From: a virus
Lineage: Duplodnaviria > Heunggongvirae > Uroviricota > Caudoviricetes
Virus record (IMG/VR): IMGVR_UViG_2740892269_000011
Length of the DNA: 6,645 nucleotides
Strand: one strand, 5' to 3'
Of this stretch, positions 1,710 through 6,058 are shown one piece after another (the first letter of the stretch is position 1; each line of letters opens with the position of its first letter). The notes under the pieces are model-generated. The model did not search any database, was not told the DNA's origin, and was given only the letters and a program-made list of their open reading frames with translations. The translations under genes and the position numbers were made by a program.

Positions 1710-2072
1710 GGGGCTGATTCTGGATTCGACGGGATTTGCGAAACCCAAGGTGCATGCCGAGGGGCGGTTGGCCTCGTAAAAAGCCGCAAAAAATAGTCGC
1801 AAACGACGAAAACTACGCTTTAGCAGCTTAATAACCTGCTTAGAGCCCTCTCTCCCTAGCCTCCGCTCTTAGGACGGGGATCAAGAGAGGTCAAACCCAA
1901 AAGAGATCGCGTGGAAGCCCTGCCTGGGGTTGAAGCGTTAAAACTTAATCAGGCTAGTTTGTTAGTGGCGTGTCCGTCCGCAGCTGGCAAGCGAATGTAA
2001 AGACTGACTAAGCATGTAGTACCGAGGATGTAGGAATTTCGGACGCGGGTTCAACTCCCGCCAGCTCCACCA
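1710..2072 (+). ncRNA. ssrA: tmRNA (SsrA, 10Sa RNA), 363 nt
   Basis: Starts GGGGCTGATTCTGGATTCGACGGGATTTGCGAAACCC and ends GGGTTCAACTCCCGCCAGCTCCACCA (tRNA-like T-arm and CCA). Contains the tag frame GCA AAC GAC GAA AAC TAC GCT TTA GCA GCT TAA TAA (ANDENYALAA). Matches the E. coli ssrA sequence from memory over the whole length. Confidence 0.97.
1799..1831 (+). other. ssrA: tmRNA mRNA-like domain: tag-peptide reading frame ANDENYALAA (resume codon GCA at 1799, tandem stops TAA TAA)
   Basis: Direct translation of 1799..1828 gives A-N-D-E-N-Y-A-L-A-A, followed by TAA at 1829-1831 and a second TAA at 1832-1834. This is the canonical enterobacterial degradation tag. Confidence 0.92.
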
Positions 2073-2189: not shown

Positions 2190-2190
2190 C

Positions 2191-2226
2191 AAAAAAGCCT
2201 CTGATTATGAAGTCAGAGGCTTTTCT
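2191..2226. terminator. Bidirectional rho-independent terminator between convergent ssrA and the prophage tail operon
   Basis: Stem GCCTCTGATT (2197-2206) / AGTCAGAGGC (2211-2220), 10 bp with one G-U pair, loop ATGA. Flanked by A6 (2191-2196, giving U6 after the stem on the minus strand) and TTTTCT (2221-2226) on the plus strand. Lies 45 bp 3' of the terminal minus-strand ORF stop (2271). Confidence 0.65.
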
Positions 2227-2270
2227 AGTTGTAAATAAGGGTAACAATTTAACACGATGCAGCTTACCAA

Positions 2271-2834
2271 TTACGTAACATCAAACGCTCTAATTGTTCC
2301 CAAATCCTCCAGACCACTCAGCTCCTCTTTCATTTCACGCTGACGGCGATAAATCTCATCGTTGCGATCGACCTGCGCCTGCACCATTGCTGCCGCCAGT
2401 TCTTCCAGTTCCGGCATCGACAGTTTCACCTGCTGATTATCGGCATCACCCCACGCCATATGCGTTTGTGCTGTGACAGATTTTGCCAGCATGACTACCG
2501 GGGACAGGCGGCCCAGTGAGTCGGGGCCAGCATTCCAGATACGACCATTCCATTCAAACGTGAACGGCTTCGCCTCCTGTTCTGTGCGCCATGCTTCAAT
2601 TTCCTGACGTCTGGCCTCTCTGGCCGCTTCCAGCATTTCTGGTGTCACAGTGAATGGGGCTATCTCACCCCATTTGCCACTTTGCAGTTCCTGCCAGATT
2701 CGCTGACCCGTCGGTGCGACATCATCAGCGGTGGCTGTGTAGGGGACTGCCTGGTCCCTGTCGTCAAAAAAAACGTCACAGTCTACTGCGCCACTTTCGG
2801 TATAACGGGGATTAATGATTTTTTTAATTTCCAC
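2271..2834 (-). CDS. Hypothetical prophage protein in the tail-fibre-chaperone position; family not recognised (187 aa from GTG 2834; longest frame 207 aa from ATG 2894)
   Basis: Long open frame ending at TAA 2273..2271. GTG at 2834..2832 is preceded by GAGGA at 7-nt spacing and lies 10 nt after the upstream fibre stop (TGA 2847..2845); the alternative ATG at 2894 would overlap that fibre frame by 50 bp. The translation (…KPFTFEWNGRIWNAGPDSLGRL…ELEELAAAMVQAQVDRNDEIYRRQREMKEEL…) lacks the lambda Tfa / P2 gpG C-terminal signature, so a chaperone role is inferred from position only. Confidence 0.6.
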   Translation of the reverse strand: MEIKKIINPRYTESGAVDCDVFFDDRDQAVPYTATADDVAPTGQRIWQELQSGKWGEIAPFTVTPEMLEAAREARRQEIEAWRTEQEAKPFTFEWNGRIWNAGPDSLGRLSPVVMLAKSVTAQTHMAWGDADNQQVKLSMPELEELAAAMVQAQVDRNDEIYRRQREMKEELSGLEDLGTIRAFDVT

Positions 2835-2844
2835 GGTGCATTCC

Positions 2845-3342
2845 TCACGATGTGCGAATAAAAAGCCCGGGCATTGCGCCAGAGACATGAGCATCCGGCA
2901 CCCCGGACAGGGCGCTATATGACCCCGGTAATGAATGCTCTGAACATCCCGTAATGAAAAATTGTGGGGATGCTATATACGTTCCGGTGGGAGTACTGGG
3001 CACTGAAATCCCCACCGGTCCCAGTCGTGAGCCTCTGTATGACTGCCCCCTGACAAGTCTGATGACTTTATCACCGTCAGCTTCTCCCTGGTACGCAGCA
3101 ATAATCAGCCCGCCAATGTCAGGGTCTCCCCATCTGTTGCAGACAGAGCTCGCCACGATTCTGTAAATAATATCTTCTGTGGTTATATTTATTTTCACCC
3201 AGCCAGTCAGTCTGGATATGGGCCAGTAGCAGTAGCGGGTGTGATAAATGGGGCCGTTAATGCCGTAAAAAGTAAGGGATTTGGCTCTGTACCTCGGTTC
3301 TGTTGTCTCAGGGCGTGCATCAGTCCACCGGATGCTGAGCAC
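2845..3342 (-). CDS. C-terminal fragment of a disrupted second tail-fibre gene; unrecognised distal domain (frame open without a start codon up to 3549)
   Basis: ORF-track ORF of 165 aa starting at GTG 3342. My translation shows the same frame is open upstream to 3549 (…RKRTAFGFGCAFLPEDVIRFDTKSDFLAWVRNALPGEYSVAGPYDIIIPDTRFEGVLSIRW…) with no ATG/GTG/TTG, and the GTG at 3342 has no properly spaced SD. Best explained as the downstream part of the gene begun at 3869, in a different frame. Confidence 0.5.
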   Translation of the reverse strand: MLSIRWTDARPETTEPRYRAKSLTFYGINGPIYHTRYCYWPISRLTGWVKINITTEDIIYRIVASSVCNRWGDPDIGGLIIAAYQGEADGDKVIRLVRGQSYRGSRLGPVGISVPSTPTGTYIASPQFFITGCSEHSLPGSYSALSGVPDAHVSGAMPGLFIRTS

Positions 3343-3416
3343 CCCTTCAAACCGTGTGTCGGGTATGATGATGTCGTAGGGGCCAGCAACGGAATATTCA
3401 CCTGGCAGCGCATTCC

Positions 3417-3869
3417 TTACCCAGGCCAGGAAATCACTCTTAGTGTCAAAACGGATAACATCTTCAGGCAGAAAAGCACACCCAAAGCCGAATGCTGTGC
3501 GTTTCCGGCTGCGGCCCCGGCGCTCTGCTGCGCCTGCGCCACCATTTCCTCAAAGCGTTTGACGACATCCGGTTTCAGGTCGCCCTCATCAGGAGCAATC
3601 AGAAAGTCATTCAGCGTGCCGGGCTTTGAGTCGTCGTATACAGCAATGTCGCCAACACAGTACTCGTCGCGCCAGTCCCGTTTCAGATACACGCAATATT
3701 TTCCGACCTGTGCCTCAAACGAATATTCACCGTTATTTCCGGTCACTACATCAGCCCTGGTACGCATCACCACTTCTGAGGTGTTTACACGGGATTTCAG
3801 AATAATCTGGCATCCGGACATGGGGATGCCTGCGCCATCAGTCAGCGCACCTGATATCACTACAGACAT
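3417..3869 (-). CDS. N-terminal fragment of a side tail fibre (lambda Stf-like prophage tail-fibre N-terminal domain), truncated by a frame change
   Basis: MSVVISGALTDGAGIPMSGCQIILKSRVNTSEVV…GEYSFEAQVGKYCVYL…GDIAVYDDSKPGTLNDFLIAPDEGDLKPDVVKRFEEMVAQAQQSAGAAAG aligns motif-by-motif with the lambda Stf N-terminus as I recall it (MAVKISGVLKDGTGKPVQNCTIQLKARRNST…GTITVYEDSQPGTLNDFLCAMTEDDARPEVLRRLELMV). After the Ala-rich linker the frame decays into non-protein-like sequence (…LGVLFCLKMLSVLTLRVISWPG*). ATG at 3869 follows the upstream Tfa stop by 23 nt. Confidence 0.75.
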   Translation of the reverse strand: MSVVISGALTDGAGIPMSGCQIILKSRVNTSEVVMRTRADVVTGNNGEYSFEAQVGKYCVYLKRDWRDEYCVGDIAVYDDSKPGTLNDFLIAPDEGDLKPDVVKRFEEMVAQAQQSAGAAAGNAQHSALGVLFCLKMLSVLTLRVISWPG

Positions 3870-3892: not shown

Positions 3893-4438
3893 TCAGGAAG
3901 AACCTTCCGGAGAGACGGACCATTCAATGGCGTTATATGAGGATTTATCAGTGATGGTGCTGAAATCCATCGCCTGCAGCGATTTCGCGTAAATACGGTA
4001 CGCTTTCAGTTTTTCCCGGTCTTCGTCGCTGATTAGCCCCAGCAGCAGGTCTTCTTCCCATTCCCCTGTCCGGGCACTGACCTGAGCCAGAAGGGCATCA
4101 CGCTCATCTTCCGCTTTGAGTCTGTAGTCAAAGACAAATTCATCATTGCGGTAAAACCAGTAACCCGGCGCGGTAATGCGGCGGTTGGCGGTAATATCAG
4201 GAACTTCAATAACACTGGCGTTACGGGGTTCAATGCCTGTCACATCCTTACCGACCCACACCACGCGCCCGTCTCCGGTGTAAACCATTTTTATGGTGTC
4301 ACTGGCAAAGTTCTTCTGTTCTTCATACCAGTTTTTGCCGTCTTCCGAAAAAAGCCAGGTGACATCATACTGTTTTGTCAGCTGATATTATTCCGCGGTT
4401 TTCGGATTACCTGCCGTAATATTTTTTAAATGCAACAT
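3893..4438 (-). pseudogene. Tail fibre assembly protein (P2 gpG / Caudo_TAP-like) interrupted by an in-frame TAA at codon 17 (4390..4388)
   Basis: From ATG 4438..4436 the frame reads [56 protein letters not shown]…SVIEVPDITANRR…EKLKAYRIYAKSLQAMDFSTITDKSSYNAIEWSVSPEGSS. It is continuous and gpG-like on both sides of the stop, with a Tfa-type C-terminus. The ATG lies 2 nt after the fibre stop (TAA 4443..4441). The track ORF 3893..4288 is the part downstream of the stop; its ATG has no SD. Confidence 0.8.
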
Positions 4439-4440
4439 TG

Positions 4441-5493
4441 TTAAATACTCGCTACGTTATACCAGGTGCCATTAATCAGTTTTTGCAGCGGTCGGTAATA
4501 CACGCCGTTGACGTTATCCGCTGAGTTACGGCCGGTATCCGATATCGATATCCCTGACAGCCCGTGTCCCGAAGGTGAGCGAAATGTCCACGAAACGGTG
4601 TTACTGCCGGGGGGGTAATACATTTCATAACCATACCGCACATCCTGCACGCCACCATTTCGCTGCTGGTAACGGGCATCAAAGTTTCCGTAGTCTGACG
4701 GTGTTACCCGTCCTGTAACGTTTACAGCTTTATTACTCTGGATACTGCCACTCTGAAAACGCAACACATGCACGCTATTGGCATAAACATCCAGCAGGCC
4801 ATCACCATTCTGTTTGAATCCGGTGTCATTATCACCAAGAACAATTGAATTCCCCCCCAGGGCGTTCTGAACGCCGATACCCAGCGCACCATTGACCTGC
4901 GAACCACCGCCAACAGACACTTTATGCGACATGGATATTTCACCCGTCCGCAGATTAATGGTGAACGGGCGCAGGGGACCAATATCGCCATTTTCCCCCT
5001 GACCTTCACTGGTGGGAATAAGGTGCAGGCACTCTTCCGAACGACGAAAAATCAGGCCAAAAGCTTCGTTGAAAATCCTCAGCGCATTAACACCACGGAT
5101 TTTCAGCTCTCCGGTCATGGTGTCGCCATCACGCTGAACGGCATTTTTTGCCTTATCCACCGTGGGTTTTAATCCGAGGTTTTCAACAGCCTCATCCCTG
5201 TCTTCCACATCCGAAAGGTTATTTTTTATCAGCAATGCCTCTTCGTTAATTGCACCGCCCACCAGCAATAATATAGCCTTATATAGCTGGTCGTGTTCTT
5301 CTTTATTCAGTTCTATCCCGGCCTTCTCAATGACACCACAGATTTCCTCCTGAATGGCATTCCACATGGCACTGTTCAGCCAGGTAGCAAGACGTCCTGT
5401 GCGAAGATTTCCGTCAGTAAATCCGTTCTTACCCGGACCAAACTTATCTTTTACCGCAGTCAGCGTATCAATCCTGTGCATCTTCATCCTCAT
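4441..5493 (-). CDS. Tail fibre protein with a P2 gpH-like C-terminal receptor-binding region, about 347-350 aa
   Basis: C-terminal half contains NALGGNSIVLGDNDTGFKQNGDGLLDVYANS…SDYGNFDARY…LINGTWYNVASI, matching the conserved distal part of P2 gpH-type fibres from memory. Three in-frame ATGs at 5493, 5487 and 5481; the last has the best SD (AGGA, 5-nt spacer). Followed 2 nt later by the Tfa start. Confidence 0.85.
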   Translation of the reverse strand: MRMKMHRIDTLTAVKDKFGPGKNGFTDGNLRTGRLATWLNSAMWNAIQEEICGVIEKAGIELNKEEHDQLYKAILLLVGGAINEEALLIKNNLSDVEDRDEAVENLGLKPTVDKAKNAVQRDGDTMTGELKIRGVNALRIFNEAFGLIFRRSEECLHLIPTSEGQGENGDIGPLRPFTINLRTGEISMSHKVSVGGGSQVNGALGIGVQNALGGNSIVLGDNDTGFKQNGDGLLDVYANSVHVLRFQSGSIQSNKAVNVTGRVTPSDYGNFDARYQQRNGGVQDVRYGYEMYYPPGSNTVSWTFRSPSGHGLSGISISDTGRNSADNVNGVYYRPLQKLINGTWYNVASI

Positions 5494-6058
5494 CTGGATA
5501 GGAAAATAAAACGACGGTGTGTGACGGACATAATTTATTAATCACGCACTCCGCAACCGTATCCCCCCACGTCCGGATCGGTGTGTTGCAGGCGTCCGTG
5601 CATGTCTGCCACTGAGCACCGGCATCCATCGGCAACGTCACACGCCAGAAATAACGCCAGCGATCTCCCCATTCCGGATCGGGGCTTGCATCCAAGTGCT
5701 GGAACTGTTCGATCGTTACGCCGGTATATCCCAGCGCCTCAAGCTGATCCAGGAAGAACTGCTCATTTATGCCACCAGCCACATTGGCTTTTGCTTCAAG
5801 ACGTTGCTGACGCTGGCGTAATGTCTGGGTTCCGACAGGGGAACAGGAATCAGGTAAACCATACAATTCTTCATAACGTTCAATCAGCTCTGTGGACTGA
5901 CCGGGATCGATTTCAATCACCAGTTCATCAGCCCGCTGGTGAACACGCACAAGCGATGGTGCCAGACCGTCAAGTACACCGTCGGTATCTGACCATGCAG
6001 GCCCCGGCGGCATCAGTCCGTACAGCAGCTTTGTATAATCATCCTGTAACGAATCCAT
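5468..6058 (-). CDS. Phage tail/baseplate protein, YmfQ / Mu gp48-like (DUF2313-type), 196 aa
   Basis: MDSLQDDYTKLLYGLMPPGPAWSDTDGVLDGLAPSLVRVHQRADELVIEIDPGQSTELIERYEELYGLPDSCSP…TLRQRQQRLEAKANVAGG… resembles e14 YmfQ-type proteins as I recall them. The start ATG overlaps the upstream stop as TAATG (6060..6056). Sits between baseplate J-like and fibre genes as in e14 and Mu. Confidence 0.7.
   Translation of the reverse strand: MDSLQDDYTKLLYGLMPPGPAWSDTDGVLDGLAPSLVRVHQRADELVIEIDPGQSTELIERYEELYGLPDSCSPVGTQTLRQRQQRLEAKANVAGGINEQFFLDQLEALGYTGVTIEQFQHLDASPDPEWGDRWRYFWRVTLPMDAGAQWQTCTDACNTPIRTWGDTVAECVINKLCPSHTVVLFSYPDEDEDAQD

Follow-up and report, generated by a model that had tools for sequence, protein, structure and literature searches.

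In phages lambda (Stf/Tfa), Mu (S/U) and P2 (H/G), a small assembly gene lies right after the tail fibre gene, and a comparable position is occupied in other phages by genes whose products carry the DUF4376 domain (Pfam PF14301). The fibre gp26 of the Alteromonas myovirus V22 binds its host only if it is co-expressed with the product of the downstream gene, gp27, which parts from the fibre on size exclusion and has a C-terminal DUF4376 domain as its sole recognisable feature (PMC7289586). V22 gp27 and gp9 of phage A5 co-purify with their fibres and have been modelled as trimeric caps, in which three beta strands extend the sheet of the fibre head; they are described as resembling the intramolecular chaperone domains (Peptidase_S74) of the K1F endosialidase and T5 pb1 (PMC10579305). 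Likewise, when the H-fibre of Campylobacter CJIE1 is placed on a pyocin, it acts as a receptor-binding protein only if the DUF4376 gene behind it is expressed too (PMC7882524). The present analysis concerns a stretch of 6,645 nucleotides (nt) from a virus of the Caudoviricetes (IMG/VR record IMGVR_UViG_2740892269_000011; hereafter the window), in which a tail fibre gene starting at 3869 on the minus strand is followed by a terminal open reading frame (ORF) at 2271..2834. An earlier reading made from the letters alone (hereafter the sequence-only reading) had described the two as an unrecognised module at a prophage end. Our results indicate with good confidence that they form a side tail fibre and a DUF4376-class intermolecular chaperone cognate to it, i.e. 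a routine fibre-chaperone pair of a class other than Tfa, and that the fibre gene is broken in this contig.

The terminal ORF exists as first described and comprises 187 codons, from a GTG start (2834-2832) to a TAA stop (2273-2271). Its start lies 10 nt past the fibre stop codon on the same strand, and a GAGGA motif (2846-2842), 7 nt ahead of the GTG, overlaps the fibre stop TGA (2847-2845). Annotation in the style of the Prokaryotic Genome Annotation Pipeline places the start at an upstream ATG (2894) and predicts 207 residues, a form found identically on 502 contigs; PHROG 1141 and the 187-residue homologues favour the GTG start. The protein matches DUF4376 with 61.6 bits (cut-off 25, E-value 1.1e-16, residues 70-174) and PHROG 1141 with an E-value of 8e-88, while the C-terminal 214 residues of the fibre belong to PHROG 2636 (E-value 9e-88, over the C-terminal 220 positions of the profile). 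The claim that the pair carries no fibre-tip or chaperone signature is therefore not borne out, both ORFs falling into curated phage tail families and the terminal one into a family with validated chaperones. The same reading offered as its fallback that a divergent receptor-binding tip is paired with a chaperone of its own, and family membership and gene context support this. The 1800 homologues of the terminal ORF in the database and a ratio of nonsynonymous to synonymous substitution rates (dN/dS) of 0.21 (dN 0.167, dS 0.81, against the SE11 allele) identify it as a real, intact gene under purifying selection and not a chance frame.

The protein is laid out as an N-terminal beta domain (residues 1-52) followed by the DUF4376 domain (about residues 65-182). 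In the AlphaFold2 model (mean predicted local distance difference test score 91.2, 74 homologues in the alignment), the N-terminal part is formed by strands 3-11, 17-23 and 30-34 and a helix at 41-52, and the body by a helix at 65-88, a hairpin, a helix at 104-119, a second hairpin and a helix at 140-173. This architecture of three N-terminal strands and a helical body with beta-hairpins appears to agree with the published description of gp27 and gp9. The solved structures, searched with the terminal ORF and tip sequences and with the DUF4376 profile, gave no match for either the terminal ORF or the tip; the predicted tip fold resembles phage receptor-binding proteins most. V22 gp27 itself matches PF14301 (76.2 bits, E-value 3e-21), and hhalign aligned the profile of the window family with it over 148 collinear columns at 19% identity (probability 78%, E-value 1.9e-5), a weak but consistent indication that the window protein is homologous to a validated chaperone. 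The window pair shares with V22 gp26/gp27 and A5 gp8/gp9 the Pfam family, the domain order and the position of the gene directly downstream of a receptor-binding fibre, and the chaperones are of similar length (195 residues in V22, 187 in the window). The V22 fibre differs in lacking the PF08400 domain, the chaperones are only about 19% identical, and the activity demonstrated in V22 is a predicted one in the window. In Campylobacter CJIE1 the DUF4376 gene also lies directly downstream of the fibre and is required for a functional receptor-binding protein (PMC7882524), whereas the N-terminus of that fibre is P2 H-like (DUF3751).

The sequence-only reading was right that the terminal ORF lacks the lambda Tfa or P2 gpG signature. 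It has no match to PF02413 (Caudo_TAP), a family to which the neighbouring ORF 3893-4288 scores 75 bits, and hhalign of the DUF4376 profile against the Tfa of the window itself found no similarity (probability 0.15%). The small gene behind the fibre and the lambda Stf N-terminal domain of that fibre are thus shared with the lambda, Mu and P2 systems, and a true Caudo_TAP gene is present one cassette upstream (3893-4438), whereas the terminal ORF, judged by its profiles, belongs to another chaperone class than lambda Tfa or P2 G. DUF4376 has been equated with the conserved C-terminus of Mu Tfa (PMC7882524), a link to Caudo_TAP that we rejected on the hhalign result. Positions 44-104 of PHROG 11571 (223 positions) match the window Tfa (3893-4288) and positions 84-218 the DUF4376 protein, a pattern that may reflect natural chimeras whose front is Tfa-like and whose back is of the DUF4376 kind. 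Enterobacterial fibres of the lambda Stf type would come with two unrelated chaperone classes.

The closest relative in gene order is phage phiP27, the right end of which is matched gene for gene by the window (L52 to L57, then attR): baseplate J, Mu gp48-like protein, fibre, Tfa, fibre with an Stf N-terminal domain, DUF4376 protein and prophage end. phiP27 L57 and the window ORF share 75% identity, the annotation of L57 reading no more than 'tail fiber protein; unknown'; the N-terminus of L56 matches PF08400 and its tip is of the same family. The phiP27 tip is, however, only 37% identical and its fibre is intact (490 residues), whereas the window copy lies at ssrA and is decayed.

The gene context was examined in 85 loci, comprising 80 IMG/VR relatives, three E. 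coli genomes, phiP27 and the phage Av-05. In 81 loci a domain of the tip family immediately precedes the DUF4376 gene and is encoded on the same strand, and in four it is missing there; 51 of these tips are intact and end 0-24 nt before the DUF4376 match, and the other 30 are split by frameshifts. From the tip side, DUF4376 followed directly downstream in all of ten further loci from species-representative genomes, among them a Salmonella allele with a tip only 41% identical. The comparison of neighbours that had been proposed as a check thus ties the gene to the tip. In phiP27 (L56/L57) and the window the pair stands behind a Mu-type baseplate. A lambdoid SE11 prophage carries it behind lambda J/Lom, and the lytic phage Av-05 (Vequintavirinae) has it with a fibre that lacks the Stf N-terminal domain. 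Since it is found behind such different tails, the pair is best described, from gene order, as a mobile cassette tied to the tip and not to the tail type.

Between alleles, tip identity is 30-42% and chaperone identity 65-80%. Tip identity follows that of the chaperone N-domain (Spearman 0.80) more closely than that of the C-domain (0.59), in 1081 pairs of distinct cassettes that are not independent of one another. In several cassettes near-identical tips and N-domains are combined with C-domains only 81-84% identical. These patterns fit an N-domain that recognises the tip. If the DUF4376 protein is indeed the chaperone of the fibre, tip swaps of Stf fibres for the retargeting of phages or pyocins must move the matching DUF4376 gene along with the tip.

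The tip family comprises 81 representative clusters at 50% identity among 1.84 billion proteins, nearly all of them C-terminal in longer proteins. In a narrow-alignment scan of species-representative genomes, the narrow subtype of the window was found only in E. coli, Shigella and one Salmonella, with five copies in a single Shigella flexneri genome. Kinship of the tip family with V22 gp26 was considered and rejected (hhalign probability 21%, match limited to a neck motif). In enterobacterial fibres as well as in V22 gp26 (residues 119-177; L086:8251-9357) this motif, LGL(K/G)SAAT ... G(A/N) ... GAFG(F/V)G, stands ahead of the tip. Four or five cassettes of tip and DUF4376 gene per genome were seen in S. 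flexneri SFBU1023 (loci L089, L091-L093) and E. coli ECMA0423 (L088, L090, L094-L096), most of them with a frameshift at one shared position of the tip (94 in the profile), pointing to either duplication after inactivation or a recurrent hotspot.

Chaperone activity and its mechanism are what we infer from the V22 and A5 homologues. The 187-residue protein would oligomerise via its helical DUF4376 domain, and the three-stranded N-terminal beta domain would attach to the C-terminal tip of the fibre as it forms, the presumed receptor-binding part, which diverges quickly. The chaperone may then nucleate or hold trimerisation of the fibre from its distal end and afterwards dissociate or remain as a weak cap. 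Such a functional reading applies to a protein that is still a 'DUF4376 domain-containing protein' in RefSeq, on hundreds of E. coli and Shigella contigs. The locus itself represents a known kind of system and opens no new biological question.

The fibre gene and the features around it are laid out in the window as follows.

1710..2072, plus strand: ssrA, transfer-messenger RNA (tmRNA) with tag ANDENYALAA, found with ARAGORN; the host gene bounding the prophage end
2190..2227, strand not assigned: hairpin with an A-run and a T-run on its flanks, from RNA folding
2271..2834, minus strand: DUF4376 gene, intact, 187 residues, predicted intermolecular tail-fibre chaperone (PF14301, PHROG 1141)
2842..2846, minus strand: GAGGA ribosome-binding motif of the DUF4376 gene, read from the sequence
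2845..3495, minus strand: distal (tip) coding part of the fibre, out of frame with the N-terminal part
3493..3496, minus strand: deletion junction (100 bp lost, GCA microhomology), from alignments to the L087 allele and FDAARGOS_944
3496..3869, minus strand: N-terminal part of the fibre, baseplate-attachment domain of lambda Stf type (PF08400; match to 9e7m)
3893..4438, minus strand: Tfa gene of Caudo_TAP type belonging to the first fibre (PF02413, E-value 7e-21; alignment with FDAARGOS_944 and phiP27)
4441..5493, minus strand: first tail fibre, 350 residues (PHROG 6859, E-value 6e-209; synteny with phiP27 L54)
5468-6058, minus strand: Mu gp48/YmfQ protein of the tail module
window end, minus strand: baseplate J protein of the tail module, C-terminus only

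The fibre gene starts at ATG 3869. Its N-terminus matches PF08400 over residues 1-127 (209 bits, E-value 2.3e-62) and the solved Stf-like N-terminal domain 9e7m (E-value 4e-17), by which this second fibre of the window is assigned as a side tail fibre of the lambda Stf type. Residues 1-124 are native; after codon 124 the frame is shifted, and the N-terminal frame stops at 3417. Compared with the intact 374-residue S. sonnei allele P0122 (L087:2770-3894), 100 bp are deleted at 3496|3495, with a 3-bp GCA microhomology, and compared with the 421-residue allele of E. coli FDAARGOS_944 (L001), 244 bp are deleted plus 3 bp. No continuous frame leads from the attachment domain to the tip, and as it stands the cassette appears unable to make a fibre in this contig. 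The open frame 3549..2845, which the sequence-only reading had taken as the distal part of the fibre, exists, but it is odd because the deletion shifts the frame: fibre sequence is encoded only in 3495..2845, and codons 3549 to 3496 are the N-terminal part read out of frame. The inactivation itself had escaped that reading, the observations of which are partly confirmed and the interpretation partly supported. Relatives of the truncated product (3417-3869), fragments of the Stf N-terminal domain, are called 'shikimate transporter, partial' in several NCBI records, which looks like a propagated misannotation.

Four points weigh against the chaperone reading of the DUF4376 protein. Its link to the validated members is remote, as the 19% identity and the hhalign probability of 78% indicate; these members, from Alteromonas and Campylobacter, lie outside the enterobacterial subfamily; the family is labelled 'tail fiber protein' in PHROG, by which a structural role is possible; and the tracking of tip and N-domain in non-independent pairs could equally reflect physical linkage of adjacent codons. 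A rival reading takes the protein not as a transient chaperone but as a lasting part of the distal fibre, an adhesin or a virion cap like T2 gp38 or Mu Tfa, which would add to receptor binding. PHROGs 1141, 11571 and 1807 carry the above label and homologues in phage records are likewise named tail fibre protein, though database labels of this kind are automatic; high salt does not detach A5 gp9 from its fibre, whereas V22 gp27 separates fully from a functional fibre; and the N-domain co-varies with the tip, while an exposed adhesin is expected to vary fastest and the protein is far better conserved than the tip. A stable component is thus considered quite unlikely, and whether a transient chaperone or a retained cap is at work constitutes the main residual uncertainty. 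A further elaboration, to which we give a similarly small chance, regards the DUF4376 domain as a phage-encoded prefoldin-like holdase, with a core of an antiparallel helical hairpin bearing beta-hairpins at its base and oligomerising into a cap, and the N-terminal beta domain as a separable determinant of tip specificity that travels with the tip in recombination. If true, an Stf tip and a DUF4376 N-domain would make up a self-contained, portable host-range cassette in enterobacteria, and the family would represent a third major class of fibre chaperones in coliphages, beside Tfa and gp38/gp57A. Literature searches on PF14301 found nothing, and those on Stf chimeras with chaperones nothing specific. 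Accessory cargo unrelated to fibre assembly (a moron, defence or lysogenic conversion gene in a variable prophage-end slot) was suggested by the sequence-only reading, which compared the position with the Z/fun hotspot of P2-like phages. The comparison holds for the location, as no further gene separates the terminal ORF from the attachment site, relatives carry cargo at their ends and ORF-191 homologues occur in two short P-EibD/P-EibE records. It fails for the gene: in S. flexneri locus L091 an ipaH gene (L091:4895-6658, minus strand; IpaH E3 ligase with leucine-rich repeats and NEL) lies 180 bp beyond the DUF4376 gene, in convergent orientation, and in FDAARGOS_944 ipaHe (L001:4193-5834), likewise at 180 bp, and an S-adenosylmethionine methyltransferase lie beyond it, none of them in its place. 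The constant placement of the gene directly behind the tip (81 of 85 loci and ten of ten), the ribosome-binding site overlapping the fibre stop, the presence within the fibre gene cluster of a lytic phage and the demonstrated chaperones of the family likewise argue against cargo, and PADLOC matched none of the three proteins submitted (terminal ORF, tip and adjacent Tfa). The context data largely refute the cargo or defence reading, which on these data and the negative PADLOC result was rejected as highly improbable.

The break in the fibre gene could also be an artefact in the assembly of a short draft contig, the strain carrying an intact 374-residue fibre and a working cassette. The exact truncated product of 150 residues (3417-3869) is on record once, on a single Shigella sonnei contig; a Shigella genome can contain as many as five near-identical module copies whose shafts differ in length, which carries a risk of mis-assembly; and S. 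sonnei has intact alleles whose tips are 100% identical to the tip encoded by 3495..2845. The 3-bp microhomology is, however, too short for a mis-join of k-mers and the loss is a clean 100 bp, 30 of the 85 related loci are frameshifted too, by which decay of the fibre is common, and the adjacent Tfa gene carries an independent nonsense codon that is common to the finished Ss046 genome. An artefact is thus unlikely, if a shade less so than a stable fibre component. With a genuine deletion as the preferred explanation, the frameshift in the fibre and the nonsense codon in the Tfa gene make the DUF4376 gene, on the sequence evidence, an intact leftover that has no working client here. A dead cassette of this sort is in keeping with the decay seen generally in Shigella prophages.

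The Tfa gene of the first fibre (3893-4438) has a CAA-to-TAA change at codon 17 (4390-4388) in comparison with FDAARGOS_944 and phiP27. Its residual ORF (3893-4288, 131 residues) is found identically in S. sonnei Ss046; the listed 131-residue ORF is interpreted as a restart remnant, and the Tfa gene as inactivated. As both the fibre deletion and this nonsense codon are present, the prophage is a decaying Shigella remnant. The exact 350-residue sequence of the first fibre (4441-5493) was not found in a collection of 15 billion proteins; in relatives this fibre has 346 (L087), 402 (FDAARGOS_944) and 332 residues (phiP27), its length varying between copies.

The module adjoins ssrA, as had been stated. 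Upstream of ssrA the window holds yfjF/ratA and smpB, and from 2271 to the window end all real genes are phage tail genes on the minus strand, running up to the tmRNA gene on the plus strand. By its gene content the tail module is assigned as phiP27/Mu-like and not as P2-like, the partial likeness to P2 proposed in the sequence-only reading finding no support. The prophage is phiP27-like, has a Mu-type baseplate and is integrated beside ssrA, and the region forms its final structural cassette; a related prophage of E. coli C311 also lies at ssrA, with a 759-residue fibre and a DUF4376 gene. The hairpin at 2190-2227 (15-bp stem, -20.6 kcal/mol, z-score -7.05, none of 200 shuffles equally stable) sits between the DUF4376 stop codon and ssrA and is all that the window has, ahead of ssrA, in the slot where relatives carry cargo; it is probably a bidirectional intrinsic terminator serving both sides. 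A consensus terminator scan did not list it, probably because the A- and T-runs lengthen the stem. Homology to other prophage copies stops about 10-25 nt past the DUF4376 stop codon, and the hairpin may therefore belong to the attachment region.

Chromosomal copies of ipaH, coding for E3 ligase effectors of the type III secretion system, are thus carried at phiP27-like prophage ends of this kind; at this place the window shows ssrA and no cargo. The two short records P-EibD and P-EibE (about 3.5 kb, from E. coli ECOR-9 prophages; H46, H47) contain ORF-191 (positions 30-593), a DUF4376 homologue with 40% identity. Judging from the names of the records, the eib immunoglobulin-binding genes probably lie downstream of ORF-191, which, if true, would add a further example of cargo right behind a DUF4376 chaperone gene.

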